DNA from: a virus
Length of the DNA stretch: 41,666 bases
Direction: 5' to 3' (one strand)
Virus record (IMG/VR): IMGVR_UViG_3300031673_000156
Positions 1-41,666 of this stretch are shown here, one piece after another. The notes below the pieces were generated by a model, which saw only the letters and a program-made list of their open reading frames with translations, made no database searches and had not been told where the DNA came from. Made by a program: the position numbers and the translations under genes. Each line of letters starts with the position of its first letter. The stretch's first letter is position 1.

Positions 1-1125
1 GGGTACGCCGTGATGATCGTGAACAAAAAAGGCGATCGCCGGGTTGAAGTCGGGCCTAAGACTATCTTGTTGGAGTACGACGAGACCTTAGAAGTTCTGA
101 GCTTTTCGACCGGCAAGCCTAAGAACACGGGCGATTTGCATCACACCGTTTACCTCAAAGAGAAGAACAACCAGATCTCTGACAAGGTCTACGCTGAGAC
201 CGGTGACCACGTTGAGATTGAGATCTTGATGTCTTACAGAGTCAACTTCGAAGGTGACAAGCCTAAAGAGCAACAAAAGTGGTTCGAGGTTGAAAACTAC
301 GTCAAGATGCTTTGTGACCACGCTCGATCTAAGCTCAAAGCCAAGATCCGCCAGTTCACCATCGACGACTTCTACTCCAAGTCCACCGACATCATTCGTG
401 ACTCTTTGTTGGGTGTGAAGAAAGAAAAGGGCGGTCGAGGCGGCTTACTTTTCTTAGAAAACAACATGCGTCTACACGACGTAGAGGTTTTAGGAGTTCA
501 GATTCGTGACAGCATGATCGCCTCGAAGATGAAGGACGCCCAGGTAACGGCTGTGCTATCTGCTATCACCACAGCCAAAGAGCGTAAATTGCTCGAAGTT
601 CGTAAGGTGCAAGAAGATATCAAGCGCCAAACGATCATCGAGACCGAAAAAACCAAGATCGCCGAGGTCGGTCAGCAAAAAGCGGACATCACACGGGCCA
701 AAGGTTTGAAAGCGGTCGAGCACGACAAGCGGCTGGACGATCTAGAGAAGACTGCGGCTGACAATAAGCTAGTCCAAGCCACAGCGGATGAGAATCTGTC
801 GTCCGAGTTAGCTAGGATCTCCGAGAGAGCCAAGGTCGAGCTTGAAGGTACGAAGGGTGTACAAGATCTCAAGATCGACCTTTTGAACAAGGAAACCGAA
901 GCGGCGGTCAAGAAGATGGAATCGGTCGGCCAACACTTCGCCGAAGCTATCGCAGCCCTACAAAACGAGAAGACGATGGTGTCTGTGGCGGAAGCGTCAG
1001 CTATCAACTCTTGGATGGGTGTGGATAACATGACGGAGGTGATGAAAGGTACGCCTTTCGAAGCCAAGTTCCAGACGATCGTCGAGAAAGCCCTTAAAAA
1101 CAAACCTAAAGCTTTGCAAGCTTAA
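1..1125 (+). CDS. SPFH/band-7 (prohibitin/stomatin-like) domain protein with C-terminal coiled coil. 5' partial: the frame is open from nt 1.
   Basis: ORF 10..1125 has no stop upstream in frame (ggg tac gcc). The SPFH-like core is AETGDHVEIEILMSYRVNF ... RLHDVEVLGVQIRDSMIASKMKDAQV, followed by a long Lys/Glu/Ala-rich heptad region typical of band-7 family tails. Confidence 0.5.
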   Translation, partial: GYAVMIVNKKGDRRVEVGPKTILLEYDETLEVLSFSTGKPKNTGDLHHTVYLKEKNNQISDKVYAETGDHVEIEILMSYRVNFEGDKPKEQQKWFEVENYVKMLCDHARSKLKAKIRQFTIDDFYSKSTDIIRDSLLGVKKEKGGRGGLLFLENNMRLHDVEVLGVQIRDSMIASKMKDAQVTAVLSAITTAKERKLLEVRKVQEDIKRQTIIETEKTKIAEVGQQKADITRAKGLKAVEHDKRLDDLEKTAADNKLVQATADENLSSELARISERAKVELEGTKGVQDLKIDLLNKETEAAVKKMESVGQHFAEAIAALQNEKTMVSVAEASAINSWMGVDNMTEVMKGTPFEAKFQTIVEKALKNKPKALQA

Positions 1126-1147
1126 CCCTCTTTTCTGTTATTAGGTG

Positions 1148-1181
1148 GCCCCTTCTACTCGATAGTAGAAGGGGCTTTTTT
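1148..1181. terminator. Bidirectional intrinsic terminator between convergent genes
   Basis: GC hairpin gccccttctact-cga-tagtagaaggggc followed by TTTTT on the + strand, and an A-run before it, so it is usable on the - strand. It lies between the + gene ending at 1125 and the - gene ending at 1180. Confidence 0.6.
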
Positions 1182-2232
1182 AGATTAGAAGGTGGCGGTT
1201 TATCCCTACGTCCATTGAAGGGATAAGGTATCTCGCCCGGACATCGGTGGAAGTCAAAACCCCGGCTACTACATTTTCATTTACCAGCACAATCTTGAAT
1301 TTTCTGGAATCCCGGCACCGGAAGAGTACGTCTTCGTTGCGGAAGTGCGGTAGGGTCTTAGCGTCGAAGAAAATAGGGATTTCTTGGTAGGCTTCGTACA
1401 CGCCGCTTTGTAAACCGGAAAATTCTTCTTCGGCTCGGGATAGGTCACCAAAGACAACAAGGTCGTCACGGATCTTGTACCGCACTATGAAGTGGGTGAT
1501 GACTGGTTTGGTGTCTACCCGTTTGAATTCAATCCTGATTTTAACATTGTCGAAAGCTAGAAAAGGAACAAAATCTTCTTTTTCTTTGATCTCAGCCGAG
1601 CCCCCTAACGGGTCGGTGGCGATTATTTTGGTGCCTCTATTGAAGATCGGCTGGTACAACATAAAGTTATCTACTACACCAGTGTTATTTTTAATAGGTA
1701 GCTGCGCTTCCACGTATCCTCTCTCGTGCCCTTCAACTAGCCGCAAGTATACTGGCCGTGTGTCCTCGTCGAAATTAGGTTCTACGTTTACCATCACCAA
1801 ACCTGGGGATGTGTAGTCGAGGACTTCGGCCCTAGTCCCAAACTTCTCATAGCCAGCTACAACGCCAGTGGCCAAGCAAATTGGACACTGGTTATCGGGC
1901 GATGTTTGACTCGTGTAACACGAACAACGTCGCCCGGTTCTTTTGCGCCTGTAATACAAAAATTCCCTACGATCCGACAAAACAGCGTTAGCCGACTTGG
2001 TTTGAATCCTCGGGGCTAATTGATCTCTTATTATCTCGTGGACGTGGTCGATCTTGTGATCGGTGTCCGAAGGCTCCCCGCTAAAAGCTGGGGGTGTGCT
2101 GCTACTGGAATGAGCGGTGAACCTAGCGTCGTAGGTCTTTTGAACCGCCCCACCATTGGTGTTGTCACGCCGCTCCCTAGATGTTCGAGCGGAACCTCGT
2201 TGATCTCTATTGTTTCTTATTGAACTACCCAA
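1180..2232 (-). CDS. Hypothetical protein with Cys4 zinc-ribbon-like motif (CSCY...CPIC)
   Basis: 350-aa ORF followed by the convergent terminator. Carries the Cys cluster RRCSCYTSQTSPDNQCPIC. No recognisable catalytic motifs. Confidence 0.6.
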   Translation of the reverse strand: MGSSIRNNRDQRGSARTSRERRDNTNGGAVQKTYDARFTAHSSSSTPPAFSGEPSDTDHKIDHVHEIIRDQLAPRIQTKSANAVLSDRREFLYYRRKRTGRRCSCYTSQTSPDNQCPICLATGVVAGYEKFGTRAEVLDYTSPGLVMVNVEPNFDEDTRPVYLRLVEGHERGYVEAQLPIKNNTGVVDNFMLYQPIFNRGTKIIATDPLGGSAEIKEKEDFVPFLAFDNVKIRIEFKRVDTKPVITHFIVRYKIRDDLVVFGDLSRAEEEFSGLQSGVYEAYQEIPIFFDAKTLPHFRNEDVLFRCRDSRKFKIVLVNENVVAGVLTSTDVRARYLIPSMDVGINRHLLI

Positions 2233-2276
2233 AACTTAACCCTCCCTACTATAAAGGTAAGGTTTGTTTCGAGACG

Positions 2277-2576: not shown

Positions 2577-2590
2577 AGTATAATGGGATT

Positions 2591-3565: not shown

Positions 3566-4275
3566 AAAAGTTTGCTAACGGCTGTGGCGACAGCCTTAGC
3601 TAATTCTTGTAGTAGAACTTCATCGGGTTCGAAGAAAAATTCGATTTCGTATTGAGCGTCGTCGATGGTAGACATATTAGGCCAATCCGTTACTTCGAAT
3701 CCAACTTCGGGGACTACATGAGCTATTGTTCGGTGGATTCTTTTCTTACCGATCTCTTGCTCTAAGGAGTCATAAAAATCTCGGTACAAGGTACCCGACG
3801 CTATGTTGCGAGGAGCCCCAATCTTGTCCGTGATATCTCCCAAAAATCCTCGTATAGTACATTTACCTTTTTCGGATCGGGTAACCGTCAGCGTCTTCGG
3901 GATGCGTCGGATGTAAGATGCCCTTACTTCAGCTTTTGTCTTCATGGATAACATCTTTTCATATTTGGGTTGATCGACCGGGGCGACAATGCGTTGGACC
4001 GTATCCCAAGTAAAGTTCCGCTTTAAAACGTCTTTGGGTACGACTTCAATAAAAGTCTCTAGGTCTTCTCCGTCTACCGACCACCGACTCTTCGGGTCAG
4101 ATAGCTCATCCCATAGCTCCCTAAAGTAACGGGTGCCGTCGATGTCCAGACCTTCCCGCTTTAGAAACTTATTGAAAGACTTGCCGGATTTTCCAAAGTC
4201 AAAACGAGAGCCCATCTTGCGGATGACCTTCACGTATTCCTTGAAAATACCTTGCTTTAATTTGTCAAATGCCAC
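3562..4275 (-). CDS. Hypothetical protein
   Basis: 237-aa ORF, tightly packed (3-nt gap) with the downstream minus-strand ORFs. Confidence 0.6.
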   Translation of the reverse strand: MAFDKLKQGIFKEYVKVIRKMGSRFDFGKSGKSFNKFLKREGLDIDGTRYFRELWDELSDPKSRWSVDGEDLETFIEVVPKDVLKRNFTWDTVQRIVAPVDQPKYEKMLSMKTKAEVRASYIRRIPKTLTVTRSEKGKCTIRGFLGDITDKIGAPRNIASGTLYRDFYDSLEQEIGKKRIHRTIAHVVPEVGFEVTDWPNMSTIDDAQYEIEFFFEPDEVLLQELAKAVATAVSKLF

Positions 4276-4277: not shown

Positions 4278-4652
4278 TTAACCCCGAAATTTAAGTTCTT
4301 TGGTGACTGAAACTTCATCTCCGCCAGCAGCTTCCACACCTTCACCATCGCCCATGCTTTCATCGTAGTAGCCTGGGAACCGCACTAAAAGAAACTTGAC
4401 CAGCTTCTTTGCTTGCTCGTCATTCAAAAGCTGGACTAGAAAACCGTCTACTACACTTTTTAATTCTTTTCGGCTCAACGGCTCCAAGAATTGCATCAAC
4501 CAATACCTAGCCGACATATCCGCAGGGGTTGATTCCATATCATCGTCAAAATCGCCTCGGGCTATTTGCCGATCGATTTCTGTGTTCAAAACCTCTGCTA
4601 GAGTCTCGATCTCTTCGTGCAAAGTCTTGATGTACTCATTACCCTTAGCCAT
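4278..4652 (-). CDS. Hypothetical protein
   Basis: 124-aa ORF in the same minus-strand operon. Confidence 0.55.
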   Translation of the reverse strand: MAKGNEYIKTLHEEIETLAEVLNTEIDRQIARGDFDDDMESTPADMSARYWLMQFLEPLSRKELKSVVDGFLVQLLNDEQAKKLVKFLLVRFPGYYDESMGDGEGVEAAGGDEVSVTKELKFRG

Positions 4653-4672: not shown

Positions 4673-5227
4673 CTACAGCCCCAAAGCGTCTTCAAATTCT
4701 TTTAGATCTTCATCGTCGCTAGTTTCTTCGTCGGCCCCGGCTTCTTCTTCGTCGGCTCCTTCATCGGCTCCACCTTCATCGGCGGCTCCTTCGTCGGCTC
4801 CATCGGCTGCCTCTTCTTCAGCGGGTGCTTCCGCTTCAGGGAGTTCGATAGCCGGTAAAAAGGCTGTGAACTTAACCAACTCATCGGAATCTTCGTCTAA
4901 AGTAACCTCGACCTCTTCTTCATCGAACCACTTTTTGGCTGACTCGTACCACTGTTCCGGTGTCATCTCTAAATCCACTCCGTGCTTATCCGCTTGGGGG
5001 AGGTAAAAACGACCGTTCAATCTTAACGTGGCTACGTTCTCAACGTTCTTACCGACCGGCTCGTCTTCATCCATATCTACTACAACTGTAGTAAAGGCCG
5101 GATCTAAGTCATGAGCTTCGATCAGATGTTGAGTCAACTCTTCCGAGATCCATAGCTCGAACTTGACGAACTCTTCCCGGTGAGTGTCCACAAAATGATT
5201 CAATGTGAGGACTTCAGGTAAAGGCAA
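4673..5227 (-). CDS. Hypothetical highly acidic protein (scaffold- or internal-protein-like)
   Basis: 184 aa with a C-terminal EAPAEEEAADGADEGAADEGGADEGADEEEAGADEETSDDEDL acidic tract. Abuts the upstream 558-aa gene. Confidence 0.55.
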   Translation of the reverse strand: MPLPEVLTLNHFVDTHREEFVKFELWISEELTQHLIEAHDLDPAFTTVVVDMDEDEPVGKNVENVATLRLNGRFYLPQADKHGVDLEMTPEQWYESAKKWFDEEEVEVTLDEDSDELVKFTAFLPAIELPEAEAPAEEEAADGADEGAADEGGADEGADEEEAGADEETSDDEDLKEFEDALGL

Positions 5228-5229: not shown

Positions 5230-6906
5230 TTAAGCTCTTTTCTTAGTCTTAAGGAACTCAAAGTACCCCAGGCCATCCATGCCAAAGACTTCAGCGACAA
5301 CGTCCGAGATGTTAGCTCGCAACCGAGAAGAACCTTCCGATAAGCCAATTCGACCTATTCGGATATTTTTCAAAATGTCATTGAGATAAGCAGCGACTTT
5401 GGGTGAAGCCTTGCGGACATCCCGCATAGTTCGACTCTTGCTTAGAGCGGCCAGAGAAGAGATCTGAGCTTGGTCCCGCTTGGACAACACACCTTGAGGC
5501 CCGTTGGGCAAAGGACGCCTCTTGGCCGTCTTAGCGGCTTCTGTGGTCGTTCCTGACTCTTGACCTAACTTACCAGCGTCAGAACGGTGAAAAGCGAAAG
5601 TTAAAAGGTAGTCACCGTCGATGTCTAAAAAGATCATCTCGCCGGGTAAGCCTACGGAGGTAGTCAACTTTTGAGCTAAGATGTCGGATCGGGTCTTCAC
5701 GTCTTGCAAAGAAACATCACCAGAAGCCAAAGCCTCACTAAAACCTAATTTTTTAGCTATCGCTTGCCCAGCCTCGGGAGAACCCATCTCGTCAATAGCC
5801 GCTACGATCGAATCGATCACAATGGTTTGAAGATCGTTGTCGTCTAAGACGTGGGTCTTAACAGCCGTCAAAACCTTTTGCTTCAACGCTTGGGTGTCAT
5901 AAGGACCAACCACCTTACCACCACGTACAACACTCCTGACTGAAGCCTTGGCTGTAGCCGGGGCCTTGCCTACCGGAGGAAGACCTAAAGTGAAGCGTAG
6001 AATCCTTTCTGCGTTAGCATCCCCAGGTATCCGGGTGTACTCTTCCAAAGCCCGTATAACCTCGTTCTCTGTAACGTCAGCTAAAATAGGGTCACGCTTT
6101 AACTTGAATGCCAACTTTTTACCAGCCATACCTCTTTTTCCTCCTATGGTCCCCTCTACAGGGGTGTCGATGTGCTCTTCACGATCCACCGTTGGCTCGC
6201 TTTCAATTTCGTCTAACAACTCTTTTAAAAATGCTTCCTCGTCTACTTCCTCTTCCGTCTCCATCATCACTTCTTCTTCTTCGTCTTCTTCAACTTCATA
6301 CACGCTAGGTTCTTCTGGACGGTCTTCAGCATCATCAACAAACTCAGTGCCGTCTACTACATCGGGATCTTCAACTTCAAAGTCTTCTTCCGCAGCTTCT
6401 TCCGCAGCCTTTTCTTCATCTAAGATGATAAGGTGTTCGTTGACCCCATCCCGGTAAGCTTGTTCTAAATCTTGTTTGTACTGCACGAGGATCTTTGAGG
6501 AGTCAGGGACCGTTTGAATTTGGTCCCCGATATTATCTTCGAAGGTCTTCACCAAATGCTGGGACAAAGAATAAGGCATAGGGATCTTGGTTTTGATCTC
6601 CTCGTTTCTTTCTTCACCCGCTGGAGCGGTCATGTCTACAGTATGCAGCTTTAGCTTGACTTCGTTTAGCCCGCCCTGGAAAGCTTTGAAAGCTAGCTTT
6701 GAGTACCACGACGCTATCTTTTCAATATAGTTTTGGGGAATGTTGTGCATCAACGCCTGGAAAGGCTCCGAGAACTCGAAGGTAGATGCGATTATCTTTT
6801 CCGTTTCGAAAGCTTGATTGACTAAATGAGCTTTCACCAAAGACGGGATAGTGTGAATCAGTGACCTGATTTCTTGTTTGCGTCGAGCTTCCATTGTGAT
6901 TGTCAC
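5230..6906 (-). CDS. Hypothetical large protein (558 aa), probable virion/morphogenesis protein
   Basis: Long uninterrupted ORF with an acidic internal tract (EEDEEEEVMMETEEEVDEE). Start is GTG at 6906 or ATG at 6894, with GGGAAGG upstream. Confidence 0.65.
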   Translation of the reverse strand: MTITMEARRKQEIRSLIHTIPSLVKAHLVNQAFETEKIIASTFEFSEPFQALMHNIPQNYIEKIASWYSKLAFKAFQGGLNEVKLKLHTVDMTAPAGEERNEEIKTKIPMPYSLSQHLVKTFEDNIGDQIQTVPDSSKILVQYKQDLEQAYRDGVNEHLIILDEEKAAEEAAEEDFEVEDPDVVDGTEFVDDAEDRPEEPSVYEVEEDEEEEVMMETEEEVDEEAFLKELLDEIESEPTVDREEHIDTPVEGTIGGKRGMAGKKLAFKLKRDPILADVTENEVIRALEEYTRIPGDANAERILRFTLGLPPVGKAPATAKASVRSVVRGGKVVGPYDTQALKQKVLTAVKTHVLDDNDLQTIVIDSIVAAIDEMGSPEAGQAIAKKLGFSEALASGDVSLQDVKTRSDILAQKLTTSVGLPGEMIFLDIDGDYLLTFAFHRSDAGKLGQESGTTTEAAKTAKRRPLPNGPQGVLSKRDQAQISSLAALSKSRTMRDVRKASPKVAAYLNDILKNIRIGRIGLSEGSSRLRANISDVVAEVFGMDGLGYFEFLKTKKRA

Positions 6907-7087
6907 CTTCCCAGGTAGATTTTATCCAAAACGTCGATTTAAAGTTAAGATAACTAAGGACGATTAAATAATCGTGATGTTTCTGTTATAGACTACTACA
7001 CCCTGGGAGATTTGATTTGTCTACACTGGTGGTTACGTTCAAAGCGGAAGCTGGCGGAATAACACTTTTCGAAGTACCGTTTAGTGT

Positions 7088-7588: not shown

Positions 7589-9196
7589 TTAAACTAAATT
7601 ACCTTTCATCTTTATAAATGCGGATGAAAAAGCCGTAGCCGGGTTCGCATTTATAAGGGCTGCGGTGTTAGGCGGCAACGGCGGGCCGGACGGGCCTGTG
7701 GGTGTGGCGTGAATATGAAGGTCAAACAAAAGTGCCAAAGGCTCCGCTAGTGTAGCAGAAAAAGCAGCCAAGGCTCCTAGGGCTATAGAACCACACTGTA
7801 CGTCCAACTTAGGGCTGTTTAGTAAGATATTGAGGTTCGATTGAAGTTGTGCGGTGGTCTTACCGTCTAAGATCAAAGCTTGGAACGGTGACACCAGCCG
7901 AACGTCTTGACCCATAGAAACATAGGTGCCTAGGCCTGAAGTTAGGGAAGTCGTCAAAGTAGCTGCGTTCATGTAGAGATTTGAGCCGTCCCCAGCGTTC
8001 ATCTTTACCGAGCCAACTTTGTCGAAGGTCAACCGAGATCCTGAAGAATGTATTACATTTATCGTTTCGGTGTCGCTGGTGTCGTCCATAATAAACGAAT
8101 GCCCACCGCCGGTTGTAAGAGCAAACTTAGTCTCGCCTGCTACATCCGAAAATTGCATTGTTTGGCCGCCGCCACGAGACCGAAGCTCGAACAAACCGCC
8201 AATATTGAACCTTAAGGTCTCACCGATTTGATAGATCGCATTCTTTTGAATCTGGTAAGTTAAATCGCCACGGATCGTAGCCTTCTCGTCTAGGTCTACT
8301 ACACGATTGTAACCGCCGCTGGGTATTAAGAGGTCGTAACCGAAAGCTGCACCGGTGCCGAGACTGAGGGCGTAGTTACCCGCTTCATCAATTTCAACTG
8401 TAGTAGCGGTGTCGTCGTTAGCGAAATATTCTTCTACGTGTCTTAGAGCGTTGCCGGATCGGCTGTGGGCAAGAGCGAAACCTTTTTGATTGAGGACGTG
8501 CCCGGATTGCTTGCGGAACAAGATCGCAGGCTCTTCGTTGCCGGGGTTTCTAAGTTGTTGGTAGTGTTCGGCGGTGAAAGATCCTCGAACTTTCGGGTAT
8601 CTTTTTTCCCACGAAGAAAAAGTGCCGTCTTCATTCTCCTTGGGCCGGGACACAATCCCGAATCGATCTTCGTCACCCAAGGTGTTGGAACGGTATTGCA
8701 AGCCTTGGCGGTGGTGTATAGGAGCCCTATCACCAGCTACCATCTTATCCTGGTCCGCCCACCGCCGTATCATACCGCCGTAGGTCTCGATCGAAGGGCG
8801 ACGGCTCATGAATATTTGAGCATTACCGCTGGAAAGCATATCGATCTCACCCGGTAGCAAAGGCCGGTATAAGGACAAGCCGTTCTTGTAGCTAGCGATC
8901 TTGTTCCGAGCGCCTCGTTGAACGGTTGTCATAATCTGAGGCTTGGCTTCGTCCGACCTAAATTGTAAGACAAAGTTGGTCCCGCCTTCAGGCATCGCTC
9001 TGATCCAAGACTTTTGTGAGATAAAAGGGTGAGTCAAGGTCAAAGCTTGAGCGCTGTTACCGTAATGGCTGAAGAACCCAGACTCGGTGTCGGGGGACAC
9101 AGCGGTAAGAATCGCTCCAAAGGGAAACCGCAGCGATTTCCGCAGCGATTCTTCCCTTTCATCATCAATTGCTTGGTCTCTATCGTAATTGGGCAT
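7589..9196 (-). CDS. Hypothetical structural protein (535 aa)
   Basis: Long ORF whose start abuts the stop of the downstream 745-aa ORF (9196/9197). Gly/Thr/Ser-rich beta-like composition. No enzymatic motifs recognised. Confidence 0.7.
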   Translation of the reverse strand: MPNYDRDQAIDDEREESLRKSLRFPFGAILTAVSPDTESGFFSHYGNSAQALTLTHPFISQKSWIRAMPEGGTNFVLQFRSDEAKPQIMTTVQRGARNKIASYKNGLSLYRPLLPGEIDMLSSGNAQIFMSRRPSIETYGGMIRRWADQDKMVAGDRAPIHHRQGLQYRSNTLGDEDRFGIVSRPKENEDGTFSSWEKRYPKVRGSFTAEHYQQLRNPGNEEPAILFRKQSGHVLNQKGFALAHSRSGNALRHVEEYFANDDTATTVEIDEAGNYALSLGTGAAFGYDLLIPSGGYNRVVDLDEKATIRGDLTYQIQKNAIYQIGETLRFNIGGLFELRSRGGGQTMQFSDVAGETKFALTTGGGHSFIMDDTSDTETINVIHSSGSRLTFDKVGSVKMNAGDGSNLYMNAATLTTSLTSGLGTYVSMGQDVRLVSPFQALILDGKTTAQLQSNLNILLNSPKLDVQCGSIALGALAAFSATLAEPLALLFDLHIHATPTGPSGPPLPPNTAALINANPATAFSSAFIKMKGNLV

Positions 9197-20973: not shown

Positions 20974-21127
20974 GGTGTCTCCAAAAGTAAATGTGTAACA
21001 GAACTCTCTTACATAATTTGTACTACATACGATTATTATCTACTACACATTTCTACCTTAAAAGTTCAAATGCTCTCACTTATTTTTAAAGGTAGAGGAT
21101 ACAAAATTCAGGGGTGGGGGAAGAAAA

Positions 21128-25576: not shown

Positions 25577-25604
25577 ATCTTACAGAACAAGGCTAGACTG
25601 TCAA
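25577..25604 (-). promoter_or_regulatory. Sigma70-like promoter candidate for the RRM gene (TTGACA-16-TAAGAT on the minus strand)
   Basis: Minus strand reads tgtgtagTTGACAgtctagccttgttctgTAAGATcaaaag. The -35 is at 25599-25604 and the -10 at 25577-25582. Confidence 0.4.
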
Positions 25605-25657
25605 CTACACATTTTCATTACCTTTTCCTACTACAACAAACCAAGGTTAGTTTGTAT

Positions 25658-31091: not shown

Positions 31092-31732
31092 CGCCCCGCT
31101 CGTACCTCGTAGTCGTGTAAAAAGTTGTCGGGAGTAGAGATAGCGTTGGAAGCGTAGATCGCATAGCCCATCCACCTACCTTTGGGGTGGTCCGCCCTGG
31201 GGTCTCGGAGAACAGCATGAATGTCCACAAAAGAATAGTGTTTACGGAACAAAACGACTAGCTCGGTTTCGGTGTAGTGCCAAATGTGATAGCCCCGGCG
31301 CTCCGCTTTGGTCTTGGGCTGGTACGGGAAAACGTTGCCGTTGGGGGTGGTGCAATAGATACTAGGAGCTTTCGAAGCGAACCAAGCTAATTGCTTGTCG
31401 AGGTCATCTTTTTCTAGGTGTTCTATCGCTTCGATCGAGATCACCATGTCGATAGGCTCGGTAAGGCTTTCGAGGTCGTGGGTGTACCGCAAGGTTTCAG
31501 ACCCGAATAGCTCGTTAGCTTTGTCTACTACAGGTTTGTGTAGATCAAATCCAGTGATCTTCAAAGCCCAAGGGTGGAGAAAGTAGGAGCCGTGGCCGTA
31601 CCCGCACCCGAAGTCTAGGACAGATTTCCCTATAATATAAGGGGCGGCACCGTGGTACAGGCGTCGAGAATTGATAAAGTCACCGTCACCGCCGTTTTGG
31701 TTCAGCTTGGGTCGTTCTTCTGTAGTAGTCAT
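31088..31732 (-). CDS. Class I SAM-dependent methyltransferase
   Basis: Motif I VLDFGCGYGHGS, followed by an acidic motif II and a Rossmann-like pattern. No DPPY/NPPY motif, so not obviously a DNA N6-MTase. Confidence 0.75.
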   Translation of the reverse strand: MTTTEERPKLNQNGGDGDFINSRRLYHGAAPYIIGKSVLDFGCGYGHGSYFLHPWALKITGFDLHKPVVDKANELFGSETLRYTHDLESLTEPIDMVISIEAIEHLEKDDLDKQLAWFASKAPSIYCTTPNGNVFPYQPKTKAERRGYHIWHYTETELVVLFRKHYSFVDIHAVLRDPRADHPKGRWMGYAIYASNAISTPDNFLHDYEVRAGR

Positions 31733-31780: not shown

Positions 31781-33397
31781 CTATGGTTTGTTCCTAAGAA
31801 TTTTGAAGTCTTCGAGCTTGGCGTTGATGGTAGAATTCGCCGCTTCTAACGAGCCGACCGTAACGTCTATGGTTTGATCGATCGTGTGAGTTTGGGCGTG
31901 GGTAGAGATCAAAACATTATCGATATAGAATTCTATGTTGGTGCCGTCTAGGTACAACCCGTACAACACCACGTCGCCTTCTGGGGTTGAAATTTGGTCC
32001 GATCCAACGTTAAACAAGCAAACCCCGTTTACATCGAAAACTAAAAACCTTAGCCGATCCGACGACGCTAGAAATTGGAAGCCGTCTTTTTGGTTGGTTG
32101 TAGTAGAGACTAGACCTCTACGGCCCGGCCCTCGGATGTGGGTGGTCTTAAGCTGGAAGTACAAGGGCAGCTTAAGCTCGACTTGCTTGGTTGTAAGATA
32201 CAAATCGTGAATTCTGTCGGGTAAAGCTCGGGTGGTGAAGTAAGGCATCGCTTCAGCTTGGGGTAGATACAAATCCAATTGGAAGGTGTCGGTGGCGTCT
32301 ATCCCTGGAATTTCTATTTCAACATCGAATGTAGCAGCCGTCAAAGGAATCTCAGAAGATTGGACGGTGCCGTACAAAGGAGCCCACACCGAAATTTGTT
32401 CCGCTGGGGTGGTTGTGGTTTCGGTAGATAGGAGATCGCCGACCACGTTGAAGAAGTTGATGTTTATATTGAAATCGGTGAAGGACAAAATTCCGGTGTC
32501 GGAAGCGAGCTTGTGGTAAACAGAAATAGTGAGCGCCCTTATGCCTGCTTGTAAGGGCACCGGGTCAATAATCTCGATGTTAAGGTTATCGAAAGCTGAA
32601 AAGGGGTTGACGTTAGAAGCTCTGATCCGCCATTCGTAAGTGCCTTCGATGTCGCCTTCGGTCAAATTGGATGTCGCCACAAGCCCTGGGGCTTCGATGA
32701 TATAATTTTCTGGCCGGGAAGTTTCGTCCGGGTCGGCTACAAATTGTGGGTTAGGCATAAAGTTGGTGATCGAGTTCTCAATGTAAATCACATCCGATTT
32801 TTCATTGTACTCCAACGGTATGAAAGTTCCGTCGTCGGCTGAGTTAGTCCCGTCCGGCGGCTCGAAATATACTCTGTGGGAGCCTTGGGAAAGAAGAATA
32901 TCGTCGTTGCTAAGGGTGTACAACACCGACTCTACGATCGGCTCGGGAGTGGAGATATTATCTTCCGGGTACACCGCCAGGCTTGCAGGGATGTTTTCTT
33001 CGAACTCATCGTACTTGATTGGCTGCGGCGTTAGCTCCCGAGCTTCTTCGGTCGTGTCTAACACCGGTACTCGGGTTGTAACCGCTACCGTGTCCCGAAC
33101 CTCTAGGATCTCCAAGAATAGATCTATCAAATAGCTAGGGTTGGCTATCGTGACGATAGCATTTTGCTCGAAGGTAGTAGTCCCAAACAATCCGTTGGAC
33201 GTGTCTAAGAAAGACGCAGGGACTTCGAAGCTTTGTAACTCCAATTCCTTTAGCGTTTCATTAGGCGTGATGTACTGGTGTAACAGCTTCACGGTAATAT
33301 CCACGGGGTCGGGATTTTCACCCACATCAATTCGTCTGATGTACTCCCCGTGGATTACATTGCGGTCTAAGCTGGCTTTTATTTTGGTAGTTCCCAT
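31781..33397 (-). CDS. Putative tail fibre / receptor-binding protein with C-terminal LamG/concanavalin-like domain
   Basis: 538 aa. The C-terminal about 150 aa (LRFLVFDVNGVCLFNVGSDQ...VVLYGLYLDGTNIEFYIDNVLIST) resembles a laminin-G jelly-roll. The rest is beta-rich. Confidence 0.6.
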   Translation of the reverse strand: MGTTKIKASLDRNVIHGEYIRRIDVGENPDPVDITVKLLHQYITPNETLKELELQSFEVPASFLDTSNGLFGTTTFEQNAIVTIANPSYLIDLFLEILEVRDTVAVTTRVPVLDTTEEARELTPQPIKYDEFEENIPASLAVYPEDNISTPEPIVESVLYTLSNDDILLSQGSHRVYFEPPDGTNSADDGTFIPLEYNEKSDVIYIENSITNFMPNPQFVADPDETSRPENYIIEAPGLVATSNLTEGDIEGTYEWRIRASNVNPFSAFDNLNIEIIDPVPLQAGIRALTISVYHKLASDTGILSFTDFNININFFNVVGDLLSTETTTTPAEQISVWAPLYGTVQSSEIPLTAATFDVEIEIPGIDATDTFQLDLYLPQAEAMPYFTTRALPDRIHDLYLTTKQVELKLPLYFQLKTTHIRGPGRRGLVSTTTNQKDGFQFLASSDRLRFLVFDVNGVCLFNVGSDQISTPEGDVVLYGLYLDGTNIEFYIDNVLISTHAQTHTIDQTIDVTVGSLEAANSTINAKLEDFKILRNKP

Positions 33398-33742: not shown

Positions 33743-33929
33743 GGAAACTCCCTCTTGGAACAATAGATTTTCTGGAAACTCTAAGACATAATACGAATGT
33801 AAAATACCGATGTCCAGACAATCCATTATTAAAAAGCCAGATAATCTAATAAGTTGTGTAGTAGAGTTTTTCTAAAGGTGTGATTTTAAAATAGTAAAAC
33901 TATGATTTTGCGAAAGCGTAAAACCTAAT

Positions 33930-33951
33930 TAGTAGGTTAGATAACCTACTA
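33930..33951. promoter_or_regulatory. Inverted repeat tagtaggtt-agat-aacctacta (operator-like) about 40 nt upstream of the beta-helix gene
   Basis: 9-bp arms with a 4-nt spacer in the divergent intergenic region. The arms contain the CTACTA core. Confidence 0.4.
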
Positions 33952-33991: not shown

Positions 33992-35590
33992 ATGGGTAAG
34001 ACCGTTATTGTAGAGGAGAAAGCTTCAAATTTTTCCAGTGGAACCTCTGCCGATAGTTTCGGTGTGGGTAACAACACAGCAAATAAAACCTACTACAAAA
34101 GTTTCCAACCGGACTTTGATCCATATATAGCTTACGATCCCGTGCTTCAGACTTGGGTACGTAGAGATTCCGAGGCTTCGGTCGAGATTCCTTTTGCTGA
34201 TGCTACCGCTTCCGAGGAAGAAAACTTTGTAGCTACAGAGATCGGTTTCCACCATACAAACCAAAAGCCTCTTACACCGGCATACGGCTTGGATGCTATT
34301 ACCAATTTAGTGGACTCTGGTCTTTCGGTGGTGAAAGTATCCACAACCGCAGGGGCCAACAACCACGACAAGCTTATAGCGGCGATTGCTTCGGCGAGTG
34401 CTGGGGATATCGTGTGGGTAGATATTGCTAGCTTCGCAGAAACGTTTGATGGTGGGGAACTCGTTATCAACACCCCCATCCACCTAGTTGGTTATAACGG
34501 AGATCCAGCCGAAACTATCATAACGATGGGTACGGGGACTGTAGGGGCTTCTCAATCATGCCTACGCTTAAATGTTGGTGGGACAGGCCCTTTGTGGAAA
34601 GATAGGGTTGTTATCAGCGGAATTACCATCGACGGTGCAGGGATTAATACCACCGACGACGGAATCAACGTTACCGGTTTTCATGCTGTCTTAGTTGATA
34701 AATCATATGTTACTTACGAAAATTGTGTAGCCAAGAACTGCTACGGTTTTGGTTTTAATTTAGAGTCAGTAAGCACCACCACCGACTTTGTTTTTAAGGA
34801 CTGCGTGGCTTCATATTGTGCTCATGGTTTCAAAGCTGGTGGTGGGACAGTAGAAGACATGAAGATCCTTAATTGTGTAGCTCACGACAATCGCCACCAC
34901 CCAAGCTCAAGCGGCACCACAGGTAGTGGTTTTTTTATTCGACCACTATTGATTCGGTTCATTATGAAGGATTGTGCTTCTATCTCGAACCAAGAGCACG
35001 GCTTCAGCACCGAACAGTTCACTTGTGACAGCCTTGTAGAAAATTGTTTGTTCGAAGGTAATGGCTGGGACATAAATGCTTTTAACCCTTCCGGTTGTAA
35101 GATATCCCAAGGGGATGGGGAAGAGGTCGATGGCTTAACGTTCAAGCGGTGTGTGTTCCGGCATAACGGTTTGAGAGCACCTTTCACAGACACGGACGGT
35201 AACGATCGGGGTATAGGGGTTCTATTCAAAGTCAAAACTGCTACTTCGAAAGATGTGCTGTTCGAAGAGTGTACGTTCGACAATAACGGTCATATCGGCA
35301 TACACTGGCATGGCCGAGACGGTGAAGCCCCCACTACATCCAATTTTGTCGTGAAGGATTGCAATTTCTATAATCATGAATTTGCTGGGCTGGGTATGGA
35401 TAACCTGGGGTCTACGGAAAACCAAATTATTACGGCTACCGGTAACTATTGGGGCTCTACGGACGGGGCTAGCGGTACAGGCCCAGGCACCGGGGACGCT
35501 ACCTTAACCTCTACTCCCTACGGAGCTAAGCGGGTAGCGAACGAAGGTGAAACACTCCAAACTTCGATCATTGTTTTGACAATCGATTAA
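33992..35590 (+). CDS. Right-handed parallel beta-helix (pectate-lyase fold) protein: candidate tailspike/polysaccharide depolymerase
   Basis: Repeated PbH1-like coils: ITIDGAGIN, NCVAKNCYGFG, DCVASYCAHG, NCVAHDN, NCLFEGNG, RCVFRHNG, ECTFDNNGHIG, DCNFYNHEFAGLG. SD TGGGGG upstream. Confidence 0.8.
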   Translation: MGKTVIVEEKASNFSSGTSADSFGVGNNTANKTYYKSFQPDFDPYIAYDPVLQTWVRRDSEASVEIPFADATASEEENFVATEIGFHHTNQKPLTPAYGLDAITNLVDSGLSVVKVSTTAGANNHDKLIAAIASASAGDIVWVDIASFAETFDGGELVINTPIHLVGYNGDPAETIITMGTGTVGASQSCLRLNVGGTGPLWKDRVVISGITIDGAGINTTDDGINVTGFHAVLVDKSYVTYENCVAKNCYGFGFNLESVSTTTDFVFKDCVASYCAHGFKAGGGTVEDMKILNCVAHDNRHHPSSSGTTGSGFFIRPLLIRFIMKDCASISNQEHGFSTEQFTCDSLVENCLFEGNGWDINAFNPSGCKISQGDGEEVDGLTFKRCVFRHNGLRAPFTDTDGNDRGIGVLFKVKTATSKDVLFEECTFDNNGHIGIHWHGRDGEAPTTSNFVVKDCNFYNHEFAGLGMDNLGSTENQIITATGNYWGSTDGASGTGPGTGDATLTSTPYGAKRVANEGETLQTSIIVLTID

Positions 35591-36869: not shown

Positions 36870-37412
36870 CTAGCTAAGAGAAGATAGTGGCTCTACTACA
36901 GAGGAGGCTTTTACCTTAGCTTCTTTTTTCTTAGACTTTCGTTTGGTGGTGTGTTTGGTTTTCGATCCTTTAGGCCGCCCGGTTTTCTTCTTAGCTTTGA
37001 CGGTATCGTCGATAGCTTTGATTATTGACTTGGTTAAGACTGGGCTAGCGTCAGTGGTTTTCTCGCTAGGTACTAGGACTGCATGAGAAGCTTTTACGGT
37101 TGGGAATTCCTTTTCGGTGATCTCTTTGACTACTTCGATAGCGTTGTCTACGGCTTGAGCCAAAGTTGTTTCGACTACACTAACTTTTTCAGCTTTGACA
37201 TCGAGCATCACCAGAGCTAATTGGTAAGCTGTTTGCCCGAGCATTTTAAAATAGTCGGTGTTGTAAGAGTTGGGATTCTTGGCGATCATCCCGCTGATAA
37301 TTACGCCTACCATTTGATCTACATATTGAGCTTCTGCTACCGTAAGTTCACGCATACCCGTTCTCCGTATAATTCTTTTGAACATCCTTACTTTTAGATA
37401 ACAGAGGAGCAT
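36870..37412 (-). CDS. Hypothetical protein with Lys-rich AT-hook-like C-terminus (KKKTGRPKGSKTK)
   Basis: 180-aa ORF with SD AAGGGGA 9 nt upstream of the ATG at 37412. Confidence 0.6.
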   Translation of the reverse strand: MLLCYLKVRMFKRIIRRTGMRELTVAEAQYVDQMVGVIISGMIAKNPNSYNTDYFKMLGQTAYQLALVMLDVKAEKVSVVETTLAQAVDNAIEVVKEITEKEFPTVKASHAVLVPSEKTTDASPVLTKSIIKAIDDTVKAKKKTGRPKGSKTKHTTKRKSKKKEAKVKASSVVEPLSSLS

Positions 37413-38212: not shown

Positions 38213-40783
38213 ATGAGCATTCGATTTTCCGGCATTTTGACGATCGATACCGTAACGGTAGTAACATCGCCTTATGTAGTAGAAGCTACATTTTCCGATT
38301 CGAGGGGCTATTTCGATGAAACTTTGATTGCTGTCGATAACGTGATTATCGACGCAAACAAAAATCGTTATGTAGTCACCGACGTTACTAGCGTTACACC
38401 TTTGATCCTAGAATTAGAGTGGGACGACCTCGATGCGCCCGCCCAACCCACCACGGGCGATGGTATTATCGGTGTGGTTTCTTCCGCTAGGGAGCTTTTA
38501 GAAGTTACCCCGGACGCACCAACCGGTGTGGCAACCGCAGCCCGTAACATCGATTTCTTCAAAAACTTAGATACCACACCAGATCTAGTTACCGGACCCG
38601 CTGGAGTCGCCGGAGCTACCGGCTTTGGCTTCGGCCAACAAGGTCTCACCGGCCCTTCCGGCGCTACAGGTATCGCAGGTATCATAGGACCACAAGGTGG
38701 CACAGGGCTAGCGGGTGTGGCTGGTGTGGCGGGAGCCGTCGGGACCAAAGGCGCTACCGGTCTCGGTGGGACCAAAGGCGCTACCGGTACTAAAGGCAGC
38801 AACGGCACCCCAGGTGTTGACGGTGTAACAGGCCTTACCGGAGCCGTAGGAGCAATCGGAAGCACTGGTATGGTAGGTTCCCAAGGATCTCAAGGTCTCA
38901 CTGGAATTGACGGGACCAAAGGTGACACCGGAGCGGGCGGTTTGGTTGGCGACACCGGAGCGGGCGGCCAACAAGGCCTAACCGGATTATCAGGTTCCAC
39001 TGGTCTTCAAGGCGTCCAAGGCAACATAGGATCGCAAGGTACGACCGGAACAAGCGGTGCTACAGGATTACTAGGTGGCACAGGTTTAATAGGTCAAACA
39101 GGGGTTTCGATAACCGGCCCACGAGGACACACCGGACCTTTCGGTCCTACAGGTTTAGCGGGAAGCACCGGAAGCCAAGGTGATACGGGTTCTCTGGGAC
39201 TAAAAGGCGATACAGGCGTAGCGGGGACCAACGGCACCACCGGAGCGGGCGGCCAACAAGGGCAAACGGGAGCGTTAGGTCAAACCGGAGCCGATGGGGG
39301 TGTAGGCCAACAAGGTATCACAGGATTCGGCGGTACTACAGGCTTACTAGGAAGCACCGGAGCAACAGGAATCCAAGGGTCCGTAGGCCAACAAGGTCTC
39401 ACAGGCCCCGCAGGTGTAGGCGTAACAGGATCACAAGGTCAAACAGGTGCCGTAGTTCAAGGTGATACTGGAGTTTCGATAACCGGTCAGACCGGTTTGG
39501 CAGGACCGACGGGTAGTCAAGGATCGACAGGCCCGTTAGGTCTTGTTGGAGCCACCGGAGCAAGCGGCACCAAAGGCGATACAGGTACGATCGGCGTACA
39601 AGGAAATACAGGCCTTAGTTTGCAGGGAAGCACAGGCCTTCAAGGTTCACAAGGTACAACCGGATTCAATGGTAACGCTGGCTCTACAGGCGTAGCTGGC
39701 TTGCAAGGTGATACGGGTACAATAGGTGGTCAAGGCTCTGCCGGTGCTACAGGCGTTAACGGTCTTCAAGGGATAACTGGCGGTGTTGGTATTCCCGGTG
39801 AAACCGGAACACAAGGTGTAGTAGGAAATGCGGGAGCAACGGGTGTTGTCGGTACTCAGGGTATAACAGGATTAAATGGTACTACAGGTATAGTAGGTAG
39901 TACAGGTGCTACTGGAATTAGCGGAGCCACCGGAGCCTTTGGAGTAATCGGAGCTACCGGAAGTCAGGGCACCACGGGCGTAGCTGGAATCCAAGGAGCC
40001 CAAGGTTCCACCGGAGCCCAAGGCCAACAAGGAAATACCGGCCCAATAGGCACCACAGGTTCTATGGGTTCGCAAGGACAGCAAGGTCTGACCGGTGGAC
40101 TCGGGCTCCAAGGTTTGACGGGATTATTAGGCGGCACTGGCGTACAAGGTGGCGTAGGAGTTGATGGTACCACCGGGGTGAAAGGGCCTACAGGAGTACA
40201 GGGAGCGACGGGTCAACGAGGCTTCACAGGCATAGGCATTATAGGACCGCCAGGACCGATAGGCTCCACCGGATTCACTGGAACTACAGGTGTTCCCGGC
40301 GAAACTGGTGCTGGTTTACAAGGCCAAACCGGAGCGGGGGCCACAGGTCCAGAGGGTCACACAGGTGTCCAAGGAATTGCGGGAGCCACCGGCCCACAAG
40401 GTATAGCCAGAACCGCTTACAACTGGACGATCTCCAATAGTTCAGGTTTAATCGTTGGTACTTATATCGTTTACTTTGCGATGGAAGCGGTGACGATCGA
40501 CGAGGTCGTGGTGACGATGATTAATTCAGGTACAGGCGGCACCGGCGCAACCCACTTTGAATTCTATAAATTGGGAGCTTCCATTTTACCGACTTCACCA
40601 CCGGTCGGTACCGGCGACTTCACGGTCATCATCCCGGCAGCGGGCGTGACGGTTATGAACGGCACCAAAGTAACCACCTTAGCTTTAGGTTTGGCCCTAA
40701 ACGAATCTTTGGTAGTAGGGATCTCAGCGGCCCCGGACACCCCAGGTAATAACGCTTTGATTTCGATTCGAGCTTTGTTGTAG
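38213..40783 (+). CDS. Collagen-like (Gly-X-Thr rich) triple-helix repeat fibre protein with non-collagenous N- and C-terminal domains
   Basis: About 590 aa of uninterrupted G-X-Y triplets (GPAGVAGATGFGFGQQGLTGPSGATG...). They are flanked by a 130-aa N-terminal domain and a 120-aa C-terminal beta-rich domain (TAYNWTISNSSGLIVGTYIVYFAM...), as in phage and Bacillus BclA-type collagen-like fibres. Confidence 0.9.
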   Translation: MSIRFSGILTIDTVTVVTSPYVVEATFSDSRGYFDETLIAVDNVIIDANKNRYVVTDVTSVTPLILELEWDDLDAPAQPTTGDGIIGVVSSARELLEVTPDAPTGVATAARNIDFFKNLDTTPDLVTGPAGVAGATGFGFGQQGLTGPSGATGIAGIIGPQGGTGLAGVAGVAGAVGTKGATGLGGTKGATGTKGSNGTPGVDGVTGLTGAVGAIGSTGMVGSQGSQGLTGIDGTKGDTGAGGLVGDTGAGGQQGLTGLSGSTGLQGVQGNIGSQGTTGTSGATGLLGGTGLIGQTGVSITGPRGHTGPFGPTGLAGSTGSQGDTGSLGLKGDTGVAGTNGTTGAGGQQGQTGALGQTGADGGVGQQGITGFGGTTGLLGSTGATGIQGSVGQQGLTGPAGVGVTGSQGQTGAVVQGDTGVSITGQTGLAGPTGSQGSTGPLGLVGATGASGTKGDTGTIGVQGNTGLSLQGSTGLQGSQGTTGFNGNAGSTGVAGLQGDTGTIGGQGSAGATGVNGLQGITGGVGIPGETGTQGVVGNAGATGVVGTQGITGLNGTTGIVGSTGATGISGATGAFGVIGATGSQGTTGVAGIQGAQGSTGAQGQQGNTGPIGTTGSMGSQGQQGLTGGLGLQGLTGLLGGTGVQGGVGVDGTTGVKGPTGVQGATGQRGFTGIGIIGPPGPIGSTGFTGTTGVPGETGAGLQGQTGAGATGPEGHTGVQGIAGATGPQGIARTAYNWTISNSSGLIVGTYIVYFAMEAVTIDEVVVTMINSGTGGTGATHFEFYKLGASILPTSPPVGTGDFTVIIPAAGVTVMNGTKVTTLALGLALNESLVVGISAAPDTPGNNALISIRALL

Positions 40784-40806
40784 AAACCTTACGTACCAAT
40801 AAAAAT

Positions 40807-40847
40807 ATCCCGGCTTGGTAGGCTTCTACTGACCGGGATTTTTTTAA
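40807..40847 (+). terminator. Intrinsic terminator after the collagen-like gene
   Basis: atcccgg-(19-nt loop)-ccgggat hairpin followed by TTTTTTTT. Confidence 0.7.
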
Positions 40848-40940
40848 TTTTATAGCTTGAAAAAGCGGCCTCGACCTTTAAAAGAATAGTAGACGCTACT
40901 GATTTTCGTCTAAACTATTTAACGCTAGAAGGATACTACA

Positions 40941-41666
40941 ATGACTGCTACAAAAAAAGTTACCGACAAGAACACCAAGAAACAGATCTTAGATGTTTTG
41001 GCTGACACCCAAGCCGAACTCCGGGCTGAGAAGTCTAAGAGCGGGGTAAACAAGCGTGCTGATTTGAAAGTTGTACAAGAGCAAGAGGTCGTGGAAAAGG
41101 TCAAGGCAGCTTCGGTCGAAGAAACGATCAAGAACTTCCGGGTCGAGCTTAACAAAGGCCTAGCCGGTTTCGAACAAAAGCTCTTAGAGAAGCAAGAAGA
41201 GTTCGAAAATATCCAAGAAGCGATCGATATTCAAAAGACTAGCCTCAAAGACATCCACGAGATCAGCCAAGAAGCCGACACGCTGGATGCTTTGCTAAGA
41301 GCCCAAGAAAAACAAGAAGAAGAATTCAATAATTCCATGAATGAAACTCGGTTAGTATGGGGTAAAGAGCAACAAGACCATGCTAAGGAGCTTCAAGAAA
41401 AAGAAGCCGAGCTTCGGAAGACCCGCACCAGGGAGCAAGAAGAGTATTCTTACGATCAAAAGCTCAAAATCAAGAAGGACAAGGACACTTACGAGGCTGA
41501 AAAAGCTGTAAGAGAGAAAGCTCTTAAGGACCAAGAGCAAATCGTTTTGGCGGATCTCAAAATAAGAGAAGATGCTTTGATCGCCAAAGAAGAAGAAGTC
41601 GCTGCGCTGAAAGCTACGGCTGACAAATTTGAAGAAGTTAAGCTAGCAGCGGTAGAAGAAGCGGTA
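40941..41666 (+). CDS. Coiled-coil protein, 3' partial (runs off the window)
   Basis: ATG at 40941 with AGAAGGA upstream. 242 codons with no stop. Charged, highly helical K/E/Q-rich sequence. Confidence 0.6.
   Translation, partial: MTATKKVTDKNTKKQILDVLADTQAELRAEKSKSGVNKRADLKVVQEQEVVEKVKAASVEETIKNFRVELNKGLAGFEQKLLEKQEEFENIQEAIDIQKTSLKDIHEISQEADTLDALLRAQEKQEEEFNNSMNETRLVWGKEQQDHAKELQEKEAELRKTRTREQEEYSYDQKLKIKKDKDTYEAEKAVREKALKDQEQIVLADLKIREDALIAKEEEVAALKATADKFEEVKLAAVEEAV

Follow-up and report, generated by a model that had tools for sequence, protein, structure and literature searches.

An octamer repeated about once per kilobase in a fragment of a large-phage genome: a candidate recognition word of a small phage clade

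The 41,666-nucleotide stretch of DNA analyzed here (IMG/VR virus record IMGVR_UViG_3300031673_000156; hereafter the window) is a fragment of an uncultured large-phage genome, and it is marked by a single octamer, CTACTACA, the reverse complement of TGTAGTAG, which occurs about once per kilobase, some 40-fold above chance. The over-representation is confirmed, and the feature falls within the known class of hyper-abundant recognition words. Few such words exist (Chi, uptake sequences and HIP1 among them), and each has led to a DNA biology of its own. Most copies lie within genes, where they bear the signature of a word selected for number; a few stand upstream of promoters at positions that are conserved in a related phage. 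The explanation that we favor, tentatively, is that a DNA-binding protein specific to a small phage clade reads the word both at promoters and genome-wide.

The window contains 34 exact copies of CTACTACA (21 on the plus and 13 on the minus strand), against 0.91 +/- 1.05 in dinucleotide-preserving shuffles, an excess stronger than that reported in the first-pass annotation of the sequence. The earlier figure of more than 25 copies for the 7-mer TACTACA is borne out as well (45 copies, 3.1 expected), and the positions given with it are correct to within about 20 nt, those near 21012 and 27125 being copies of the 7-mer only. CTACTACA outnumbers every other octamer in the window, and the runner-up, GTAGTAGA (19 copies), overlaps it by 7 nt. 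The word's 8-nt length is sharply defined: each single-mismatch variant occurs at most seven times, and the flanks of the copies display no consensus except for a T at -1, which is due to the coding of Val-Val-Asp/Glu. A dispersed repeat element as the source of the copies is ruled out, because the flanks are not conserved, and no two copies in the window form an exact inverted pair. The excess persists outside the window. The 59.6 kb of an extended, 69-kb contig on which words were counted add a flank of about 9 kb on each side; each flank has 8 copies, and the 59.6 kb together 50 (28 plus, 22 minus), where an order-2 Markov model predicts 1.3. A literature search for the word itself found no paper.

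Coding sequence cannot account for the excess. Thirty of the 34 copies lie inside genes, in four reading frames. Many of these had been attributed in the first-pass annotation to Val-Val encoded as GTA-GTA, and 17 do read xT-GTA-GTA-G on the coding strand; the attribution fails for the other 13, which lie on the other strand and encode Thr-Thr (six), Tyr-Tyr (five) or Leu-Leu-Gln (two), and it does not explain the excess. When synonymous codons were permuted with all proteins kept, 2.1 +/- 1.4 genic copies were predicted, against the 30 observed. The word is carried by 30 of the 77 peptide positions able to encode it, including five of six Tyr-Tyr contexts. Orthologues in related phages have the same or similar peptides in other codons; several of the sites arose by conservative replacement (Ile-Ile to Val-Val, Leu-Glu-His to Leu-Leu-Gln) and others by synonymous changes. 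That half of the genic copies are Val-Val might suggest an artifact of amino-acid composition or codon-pair usage, but the synonymous shuffle and the codons of the orthologues rule out such a cause, the use of four frames also speaks against it, and we regard it as practically dismissed. Since the excess is not a coding bias, it points to selection at the DNA level.

The word belongs to a family that is common to three related phages. Relative R is the phage represented by loci L011, L138 and L224, which overlap at 99.9%; its counterpart of a conserved 712-aa protein of the window is about 68% identical. The other phage, at locus L007, is a 57% relative. Counts of TGTA[AG]NAG (TGTARNAG) are given below as observed against the order-2 expectation, followed by counts of individual versions.

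Window contig (59.6 kb): 81 observed, 13.4 expected; TGTAGTAG 50, TGTAAGAG 13, TGTAGCAG 6
R (36.8 kb): 34 observed, 8.8 expected; TGTAGTAG 11, TGTAACAG 9, TGTAATAG 7, TGTAAGAG 6
L007 (22 kb): 30 observed, 4.9 expected; TGTAAGAG 9, TGTAATAG 8, TGTAACAG 5, TGTAGTAG 1

Enrichment of TGTA[AG][CGT]AG is 6-fold in the window contig, 3.9-fold in R and 6-fold in L007, at 0.9-1.4 copies per kb. An A at position 6 is enriched in none of the three, which leaves the family TGTA-R-B-AG. The three phages keep about one TGTARBAG per kb, and the preferred version shifts from TGTAANAG in L007 through a mixture in R to TGTAGTAG in the window phage, which has narrowed to that form. The copies in the relatives are also intragenic and in both orientations (22 of 24 for TGTAANAG in L007; 19 of 21 for TGTARNAG in R). 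Individual sites are short-lived: R has 3 of 17 coding sites in common with the window and private sites of its own, and many of its orthologous positions lie one synonymous change from the word. This rapid turnover of coding sites suggests that number rather than place is selected.

The family has a narrow distribution. No such dispersed word was found in the relatives at loci L008, L009 and L010, nor any comparable word in the roughly 40 loci of at least 10 kb among 80 further metagenomic relatives, where the outliers proved to be tRNA T-loops or repetitive genes. Viral contigs were also scanned for the pair pattern TGTAGTAG-N(0-30)-TGTAGTAG; the densest matches listed were Thr/Tyr-rich low-complexity or fiber genes unrelated to the window phage, and no unrelated phage with dispersed copies appeared among the matches listed. 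One 42% relative (L207; 29% GC, 22 kb) contains TTCTAAAG 31 times, TTTAAAGT 32 times and CTTTAAAG 34 times, on both strands and with no flank consensus. As a parallel case TTCTAAAG and CTTTAAAG were set aside, being only 4-6-fold above the order-2 expectation in a 29% GC genome; the words of L207 may be a weaker parallel or a composition effect.

The intragenic copies are listed below. They are exact matches to the word in the window, with the strand of CTACTACA in parentheses, and were then read as codons within the gene.

1266..1273 (+), gene 1180-2232(-): coding strand T-GTA-GTA-G, N-V-V-A
1671..1678 (+), gene 1180-2232(-): G-V-V-D
3608..3615 (-), gene 3562-4275(-): sense CTA-CTA-CA, L-L-Q
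4448..4455 (+), gene 4278-4652(-): S-V-V-D
5077..5084 (+), gene 4673-5227(-): V-V-V-D, followed by the inverted 7-mer TGTAGTA at 5087-5093
6354..6361 (+), gene 5230-6906(-): D-V-V-D
8296..8303 (+), gene 7589-9196(-): R-V-V-D
8399..8406 (-), gene 7589-9196(-): sense A-T-T
10301..10308 (-), gene 9197-11434(-): sense A-T-T; R has GCTACTACC, one synonymous change off
11784..11791 (+), gene 11605-11940(-): P-V-V-D
13765..13772 (+), gene 13352-13783(-): N-V-V-D, common to R; N-I-L-G in L007
14024..14031 (-), gene 13780-14463(-): L-L-Q; relatives have L-E-H or L-I-Q, an amino-acid replacement
14175..14182 (+), gene 13780-14463(-): Y-V-V-E; Y-I-I-E in L007 and L008, TATGTCGTAGAG in R
14953..14960 (-), gene 14885-15886(-): V-Y-Y-K; R has GTTTACTACAAA, one synonymous change off
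15103..15110 (+), gene 14885-15886(-): A-V-V-D
15466..15473 (+), gene 14885-15886(-): D-V-V-V
16361..16368 (+), gene 15903-16835(-): A-V-V-V; A-V-I-I in R
16820..16827 (-), gene 15903-16835(-): P-Y-Y-T
18318..18325 (-), gene 18207-18806(-): A-T-T, via synonymous changes (relatives GCC-ACC-ACC and similar)
18569..18576 (+), gene 18207-18806(-): Y-V-V-G, common to R
20442..20449 (-), 712-aa gene 18835-20973(-): N-Y-Y-N, common to R; L007 and L008 have the same peptide in the codons AAT-TAT-TAC-AAC
21723..21730 (+), gene 21359-22276(+): sense S-T-T; other Ser/Thr codons in relatives
28345..28352 (-), last codons of open reading frame (ORF) 28334-28720(-): T-Y-Y-I; ACCTATTACATC in R
31525..31532 (+), methyltransferase gene 31088-31732(-): P-V-V-D
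31721..31728 (-), methyltransferase gene 31088-31732(-): T-T-T
32099..32106 (-), gene 31781-33397(-): S-T-T
34090..34097 (+), beta-helix gene 33992-35590(+): T-Y-Y-K
36893..36900 (+), gene 36870-37412(-): S-V-V-E
38275..38282 (-), collagen-like gene 38213-40783(+): coding strand Y-V-V-E
39817..39824 (-), collagen-like gene 38213-40783(+): G-V-V-G

The four remaining copies are intergenic, at 6993, 21040, 25628 and 33857, much as the first-pass annotation described them. A fifth that it placed between genes, at 28345, falls within the final codons of ORF 28334-28720; the start of the subtilase gene, at 28325, is 20 nt downstream. Each of the four occupies a divergent spacer; at the genome's own density, 804 nt of such spacers would contain 0.66 copies (P=0.005, in a post hoc test). 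The copies, the variant boxes near them and the adjoining promoters are as follows.

6993..7000 (+): exact copy in divergent spacer 6907-7016; the minus strand reads TGTAGTAG-TC-TATAACAG, two adjacent boxes
20994..21001 (+): box TGTAACAG in the control region; the same column holds TGTAATAG in L007 and TGTAGTAG in L008
21005..21013 (-): box TGTAAGAGA, third of an array, 32 nt upstream of where the 712-aa gene starts; similar to a -10 element (TAAGAG)
21020..21027 (-): box TGTAGTAC, second of the array; conserved in R (L011)
21040..21047 (+): exact copy, minus strand TGTAGTAG; first box of the array upstream of the 712-aa gene
25577..25604 (-): the RRM-protein gene's sigma-70-like promoter, TTGACA-16-TAAGAT; includes TGTAAGAT, a copy of a second over-represented word described below
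25602..25609 (-): box TGTAGTTG, overlapping the -35 hexamer of the RRM-gene promoter
25628..25635 (+): exact copy, minus strand TGTAGTAG, 23 nt upstream of the RRM-gene -35
33788..33816 (-): TGGACA-17-TATTAT, sigma-70-like promoter serving the 108-aa gene 33416-33742(-); conserved both in L224 and in L225, a 75% relative
33857..33864 (-): exact copy, exactly 40 nt upstream of the TGGACA -35
33930..33951: inverted repeat TAGTAGGTTA-GA-TAACCTACTA, operator-like, with a TAGTAG core

Several of these boxes have kept their positions in related phages. The array upstream of the 712-aa gene reads TGTAGTAG-N12-TGTAGTAC-N6-TGTAAGAG in the window and TGTAGTAG-N12-TGTAGTAC-N5-TATAGTAG in R, with diverged spacers. 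The same intergenic region holds the sole exact copy in the 22 kb of L007 and one of the three in L008, and an element CTRYTACAC, the complementary-strand reading at 20994..21001, is aligned in all four phages; together with 21005-21013 it forms an inverted pair, TGTAACAG-N4-CTCTTACA. In the RRM-gene promoter of R the -35 is conserved and the -10 is TAAAAT rather than TAAGAT, and R has TGTAATAG at the alignment column of 25628..25635. The box at 33857..33864 is the identical CTACTACA in R (L224), at the same 40-nt distance and between unrelated flanks. Thus all three testable intergenic boxes are retained in R, against 3 of 17 coding sites (P=0.018, again post hoc). The inverted repeat at 33930-33951 does contain the related core that the first-pass annotation noted; the 15-mer GCTCTACTGATCTAC, for which a similar relationship had been proposed (it occurs twice, at 23755 on the plus and 30476 on the minus strand), is not the motif. 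The spacer of L225 that corresponds to the inverted repeat carries a different one, TCTAAGACCTTACA..TGTAAGGTCTTAGA, with TGTAAGG cores. A possible likeness to the Arc operator (TAGTAGA) was also noted.

A second over-represented word, TGTAAGA[TCG]A, was noted alongside these boxes; its 9-mers reach z values of 10-14 against the synonymous shuffle. All five intergenic copies, at 11478-11486(-), 21005-21013(-), 23442-23450(+), 25576-25584(-) and 36717-36725(-), are co-oriented with the downstream gene and lie 20-66 nt from its start, and about 20 further copies are intragenic and mostly antisense. The word is probably the -10 region of sigma-70-like promoters. The RRM gene itself (25273-25536(-)) encodes an 87-aa single-RRM RNA-binding protein that is kept in relatives and has a TGTA box upstream of its own promoter.

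Because the intergenic copies are oriented with a downstream gene, the first-pass annotation took the word for a promoter or regulator-binding motif, for example a middle/late promoter element. The orientation is uninformative: a divergent spacer offers a gene in either direction, and co-orientation is automatic. Within genes the two orientations relative to transcription are used nearly equally (17 of 37 compatible positions in one, 13 of 40 in the other; P=0.25). Within 30-150 nt of gene starts or ends the word shows no enrichment, the overall intergenic density is close to the genic (4 copies observed, 3.0 expected), and the word stands anywhere from 17 to 128 nt from the next gene start. 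The copies are thus neither concentrated in intergenic DNA nor held at a fixed distance from starts, as a class of promoters would be. On the two points by which the first-pass annotation would have judged its proposal, the outcome is split: codon-pair use fails to explain the excess, yet the word shows no general enrichment upstream of starts. A word that does behave as a promoter is found in L009 (a 49% relative), where 9 of the 10 copies of TGTATAAT are intergenic and all run in the direction of the downstream gene; this is a clear promoter word and served as a positive control.

It is therefore very unlikely that the octamer drives middle or late genes as a promoter element at which a phage-encoded sigma factor, RNA polymerase or activator would act. 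The presence of four copies in promoter-bearing divergent spacers fits such an element, as does the occurrence of homologues of the 712-aa protein in PBS1 and AR9, phages that have their own RNA polymerases. However, 88% of the copies are intragenic and in both orientations, the promoter word of L009 behaves quite differently, and next to the boxes stand sigma-70-like promoters, whose -35 lies 23-40 nt downstream of the box. A general promoter role is ruled out by the intragenic location, the divergent spacers and the lack of enrichment at starts. What survives of the earlier proposal is its regulatory part: the intergenic copies are plausible as regulator-binding sites. A polar, replication-oriented word of the kind of KOPS or SRS is also ruled out, as the copies show no strand switch at the GC-skew minimum near 21 kb (18:12 to its left and 10:10 to its right).

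According to the explanation that we favor, TGTAGTAG/CTACTACA would be the preferred form of an 8-bp word, TGTA-R-B-AG, that a sequence-specific DNA-binding protein, confined to a small phage clade and probably encoded by the phage, reads whichever way it is oriented. The sites form two layers. A few copies, at fixed positions upstream of sigma-70-like promoters in divergent control regions, are probably sites for a regulator, either an activator or a repressor. The others, about 90%, lie in genes, where they were made by synonymous and conservative codon changes and are replaced quickly between relatives, and selection would keep the number of sites per genome (about one per kb) rather than their location. 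Sites selected genome-wide for number suggest a protein that would load on, mark, or be titrated by the whole phage DNA. Possible roles include self-marking, a replication-coupled titration timer for a regulator, and genome-wide modulation of an enzyme that tracks along DNA. We infer that one protein reads both layers, that the phage encodes it, and what its binding would do.

Several points weigh against this explanation. No reader protein was found. The only candidate examined is the basic 108-aa protein (33416-33742) that adjoins the inverted repeat, and it has no meaningful matches: sequence searches of Pfam and PDB give nothing even at E=10, its AlphaFold model has a pLDDT of 64, and Foldseek returns nothing below E=2.8. 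A ribbon-helix-helix fold for this protein, suggested by a strand-helix-helix pattern seen by eye, is unsupported by Pfam, PDB and Foldseek and was set aside, as was an acidic 75-aa protein beside the control region, which is an unlikely DNA binder with 9 basic and 16 acidic residues. No characterized phage regulator known to us has sites as dense as these, with about 90% of them inside genes and no dependence on orientation. The tests for enrichment in divergent spacers and for conservation are post hoc and rest on three or four sites; conservation of the boxes could be partly shared descent, the probability that an 8-mer survives neutral divergence of about 35% being ~0.03. Finally, the reader could be encoded by the host.

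It is possible, though doubtful, that the octamer is instead a Chi-like site, a word that a helicase-nuclease of the RecBCD/AddAB type, host's or phage-encoded, reads on unwound DNA. Reading would switch the enzyme from degradation to recombination, and copies in both orientations would protect and recombine the phage's permuted linear DNA. Chi outranks all other octamers in phages P1 and LLS, with about one copy per 1.9 kb; the second-ranking octamer overlaps it by 7 nt, and the excess is not accounted for by codon use (PMC12315714). The window bears the same signature: a non-palindromic top octamer at a density in the range of one per 1-2 kb, a runner-up that overlaps it by 7 nt, and independence of codon use. 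Turnover at steady density and the "dialects" of different lineages would be expected from adaptation to different hosts, and the TGTAGTAG strand is G+T-rich and without C, as are known Chi words. The strand ratio of 28:22 in the extended contig shows no orientation bias and resembles the mixture in the first 50 kb of P1, where Chi is again the top octamer (15 plus, 12 minus); it is unlike the strong bias of Chi in the cos phages LLS and MD8 (20:3 and 32:0; PMC12315714). The word is also unrelated to any known Chi, and its degenerate family TGTARBAG is common to related phages. Moreover, a Chi-like role leaves three features unexplained, namely the conservation of position upstream of three promoters, the control-region copy in relatives that lack genome-wide enrichment, and the core within the operator-like inverted repeat. 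The one-reader model is ranked higher because it covers the promoter boxes, the control-region copy and the repeat.

An unlikely alternative is that the word is a target for DNA processing: a phage-specific base modification, nicking, a long start site for primase, or a functionless drive by repair or gene conversion. At about 2.4 kb per strand, the copies are spaced on the scale of an Okazaki fragment, genes for an HNH endonuclease and an S-adenosylmethionine (SAM) methyltransferase lie side by side at 30558-31732, and the GC-skew minimum adjoins the box array and the replication genes. However, Pfam assigns the methyltransferase to families typical of enzymes that act on small molecules or RNA rather than DNA, there is no orientation switch at the skew minimum, and known phage nick sites are found on one strand only. 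Repair-driven spread of the very-short-patch (VSP) type is unlikely and was set aside, since one-mismatch neighbors, C-to-T variants included, are not depleted as a repair drive would predict. It is highly improbable that the word is a DNA uptake sequence or another host-genome signature acquired passively by the phage. The uptake signal sequences (USS) of Haemophilus and the Pasteurellaceae and the DNA uptake sequences (DUS) of Neisseria and the Neisseriaceae are features of host chromosomes, driven by transformation and often paired as terminators. The octamer resembles them in its density of about one per kb, its presence on both strands and in coding sequence in favored frames, and its lineage dialects. 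Yet it occurs in a phage that is large, apparently lytic and not subject to a transformation drive; it lacks terminator-forming inverted pairs and an extended flank consensus; it stands also at conserved promoter-proximal positions; and dispersed copies were seen in no unrelated phage among the viral-contig matches listed.

Two other systems are instructive by comparison. The stoperators of cluster A mycobacteriophages are 13-bp sites, found mostly in short intergenic gaps and oriented with transcription. Like the stoperators, which are spread over genomes of about 50 kb, the octamer provides tens of short asymmetric sites, some of them at promoters, and these sites are dispersed and lineage-specific; co-evolution of site and reader between related phages is a feature of the stoperators. 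Unlike them, it is 8 bp long, 88% intragenic and independent of orientation (17 against 13), and neither repressor nor integrase was found in the 60 kb available. HIP1 (GCGATCGC) of cyanobacteria is likewise a hyper-abundant intragenic octamer under selection at the DNA level, but it is palindromic, linked to methyltransferases and a property of host genomes (PMC5861425, PMC4390886). The octamer of the window is non-palindromic, and the only methyltransferase found there is of a non-DNA class by Pfam.

Several assemblies in ENA, JGI and Logan contain the window sequence as well, 99.9-100% identical, on contigs of up to 69 kb; contigs of up to 87.5 kb exist that could serve for assembling the complete genome. 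The phage collection held no nucleotide-level relative of the window, and a single-protein search of IMG/VR found no close relative. GTDB relatives are scattered across bins of metagenome-assembled genomes (MAGs) from four phyla (Clostridia, Acidobacteria, Actinomycetes and Blastocatellia). In one of them (L223; GTDB JBDIBI010000001.1, a 946,942-bp contig of a Blastocatellia MAG) the 712-aa phage protein has a 46% homologue. The homologue sits on nearly 1 Mb of DNA, and a prophage, a chimeric assembly or a very large phage could each be the reason. The ribosome-binding sites are G-rich (GGGGG, GGGGT, GGGTGGGG) and not GGAGG, as at 21110-21127, 25675-25692, 29668-29685, 33975-33991 and 23815-23834, and this unusual feature may be a clue to the host.

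The coding fraction of the window is 91%, with two tRNA genes. The genes recognized include those for a DnaB-like helicase, a 5'-3' exonuclease, a subtilase, a DnaJ protein and the RRM protein, besides the HNH endonuclease and the methyltransferase, and for beta-helix, collagen-like and vault-shoulder/SPFH proteins. The conserved 712-aa protein (phrog_2426; gene 18835-20973(-)) has homologues in PBS1/AR9 and in Vi01-like phages. In about 60 kb of what is a larger genome, no recombinase, integrase or recognizable repressor was found. The ORF at 10-1125(+) extends to the left of the window as an 884-aa gene (L135, 11108-13762) with major-vault-protein shoulder, vault-repeat and SPFH/Band-7 domains, a protein that is, to our knowledge, unusual for a phage. 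To the right of the window (L132, 14029-16528) lie genes for NAD salvage (an NMN adenylyltransferase-NUDIX protein and an NAMPT-like protein), which are typical of large phages. The ORF at 7017-7592(+) would encode a protein rich in Pro, Leu and Ile and highly repetitive; an antisense ORF overlaps this one and makes its coding status uncertain, and its internal DNA repeats of about 170 nt are 84.5% identical (7107-7325 against 7275-7493).

The lowest point of the cumulative GC skew, at about 20-21 kb, falls in the divergent control region that adjoins the helicase and replication genes, and the skew is still positive to the right of it, even across the minus-strand genes at 27-33 kb; the region, where the TGTA-box array also lies, is a candidate replication origin. 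An 80-nt inverted repeat, 85% complementary, is divided between two intergenic regions 6.7 kb apart (23698-23777 and 30468-30547) and includes the 15-mer GCTCTACTGATCTAC and a terminator-like hairpin. A palindromic word, AGCTTAAGCT / GCTTAAGCT, is also over-represented: with both strands counted, the 10-mer palindrome is present 6 times, and coding sequence has 7 copies of the 9-mer, where 0.23 are expected.

The octamer combines a roughly 40-fold excess, a degenerate family whose preferred version shifts among three phages, and conserved positions beside promoters. Were a helicase-nuclease of the host to read it, the word would be Chi for an uncultured soil bacterium and would serve as a sequence tag by which to trace that host; with a reader encoded by the phage, it would represent a new kind of genome-wide system for self-marking or titration. 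Either way, the word is a marker for the metagenome fragments of this phage lineage and a testable candidate binding site. A more speculative possibility, to which we give little weight, is that phage protein and 8-bp word co-evolve as a "self-identity code", written at about one copy per kb in the phage's own genes and on both strands. One reader would then regulate a few promoters and recognize the whole phage chromosome as self, a distinction that could serve to protect it from nucleases, to recruit the replication or transcription machinery, or to count genome copies. If this were true, the drift from TGTAANAG through a mixture to TGTAGTAG would be a self-identity code changing in real time.

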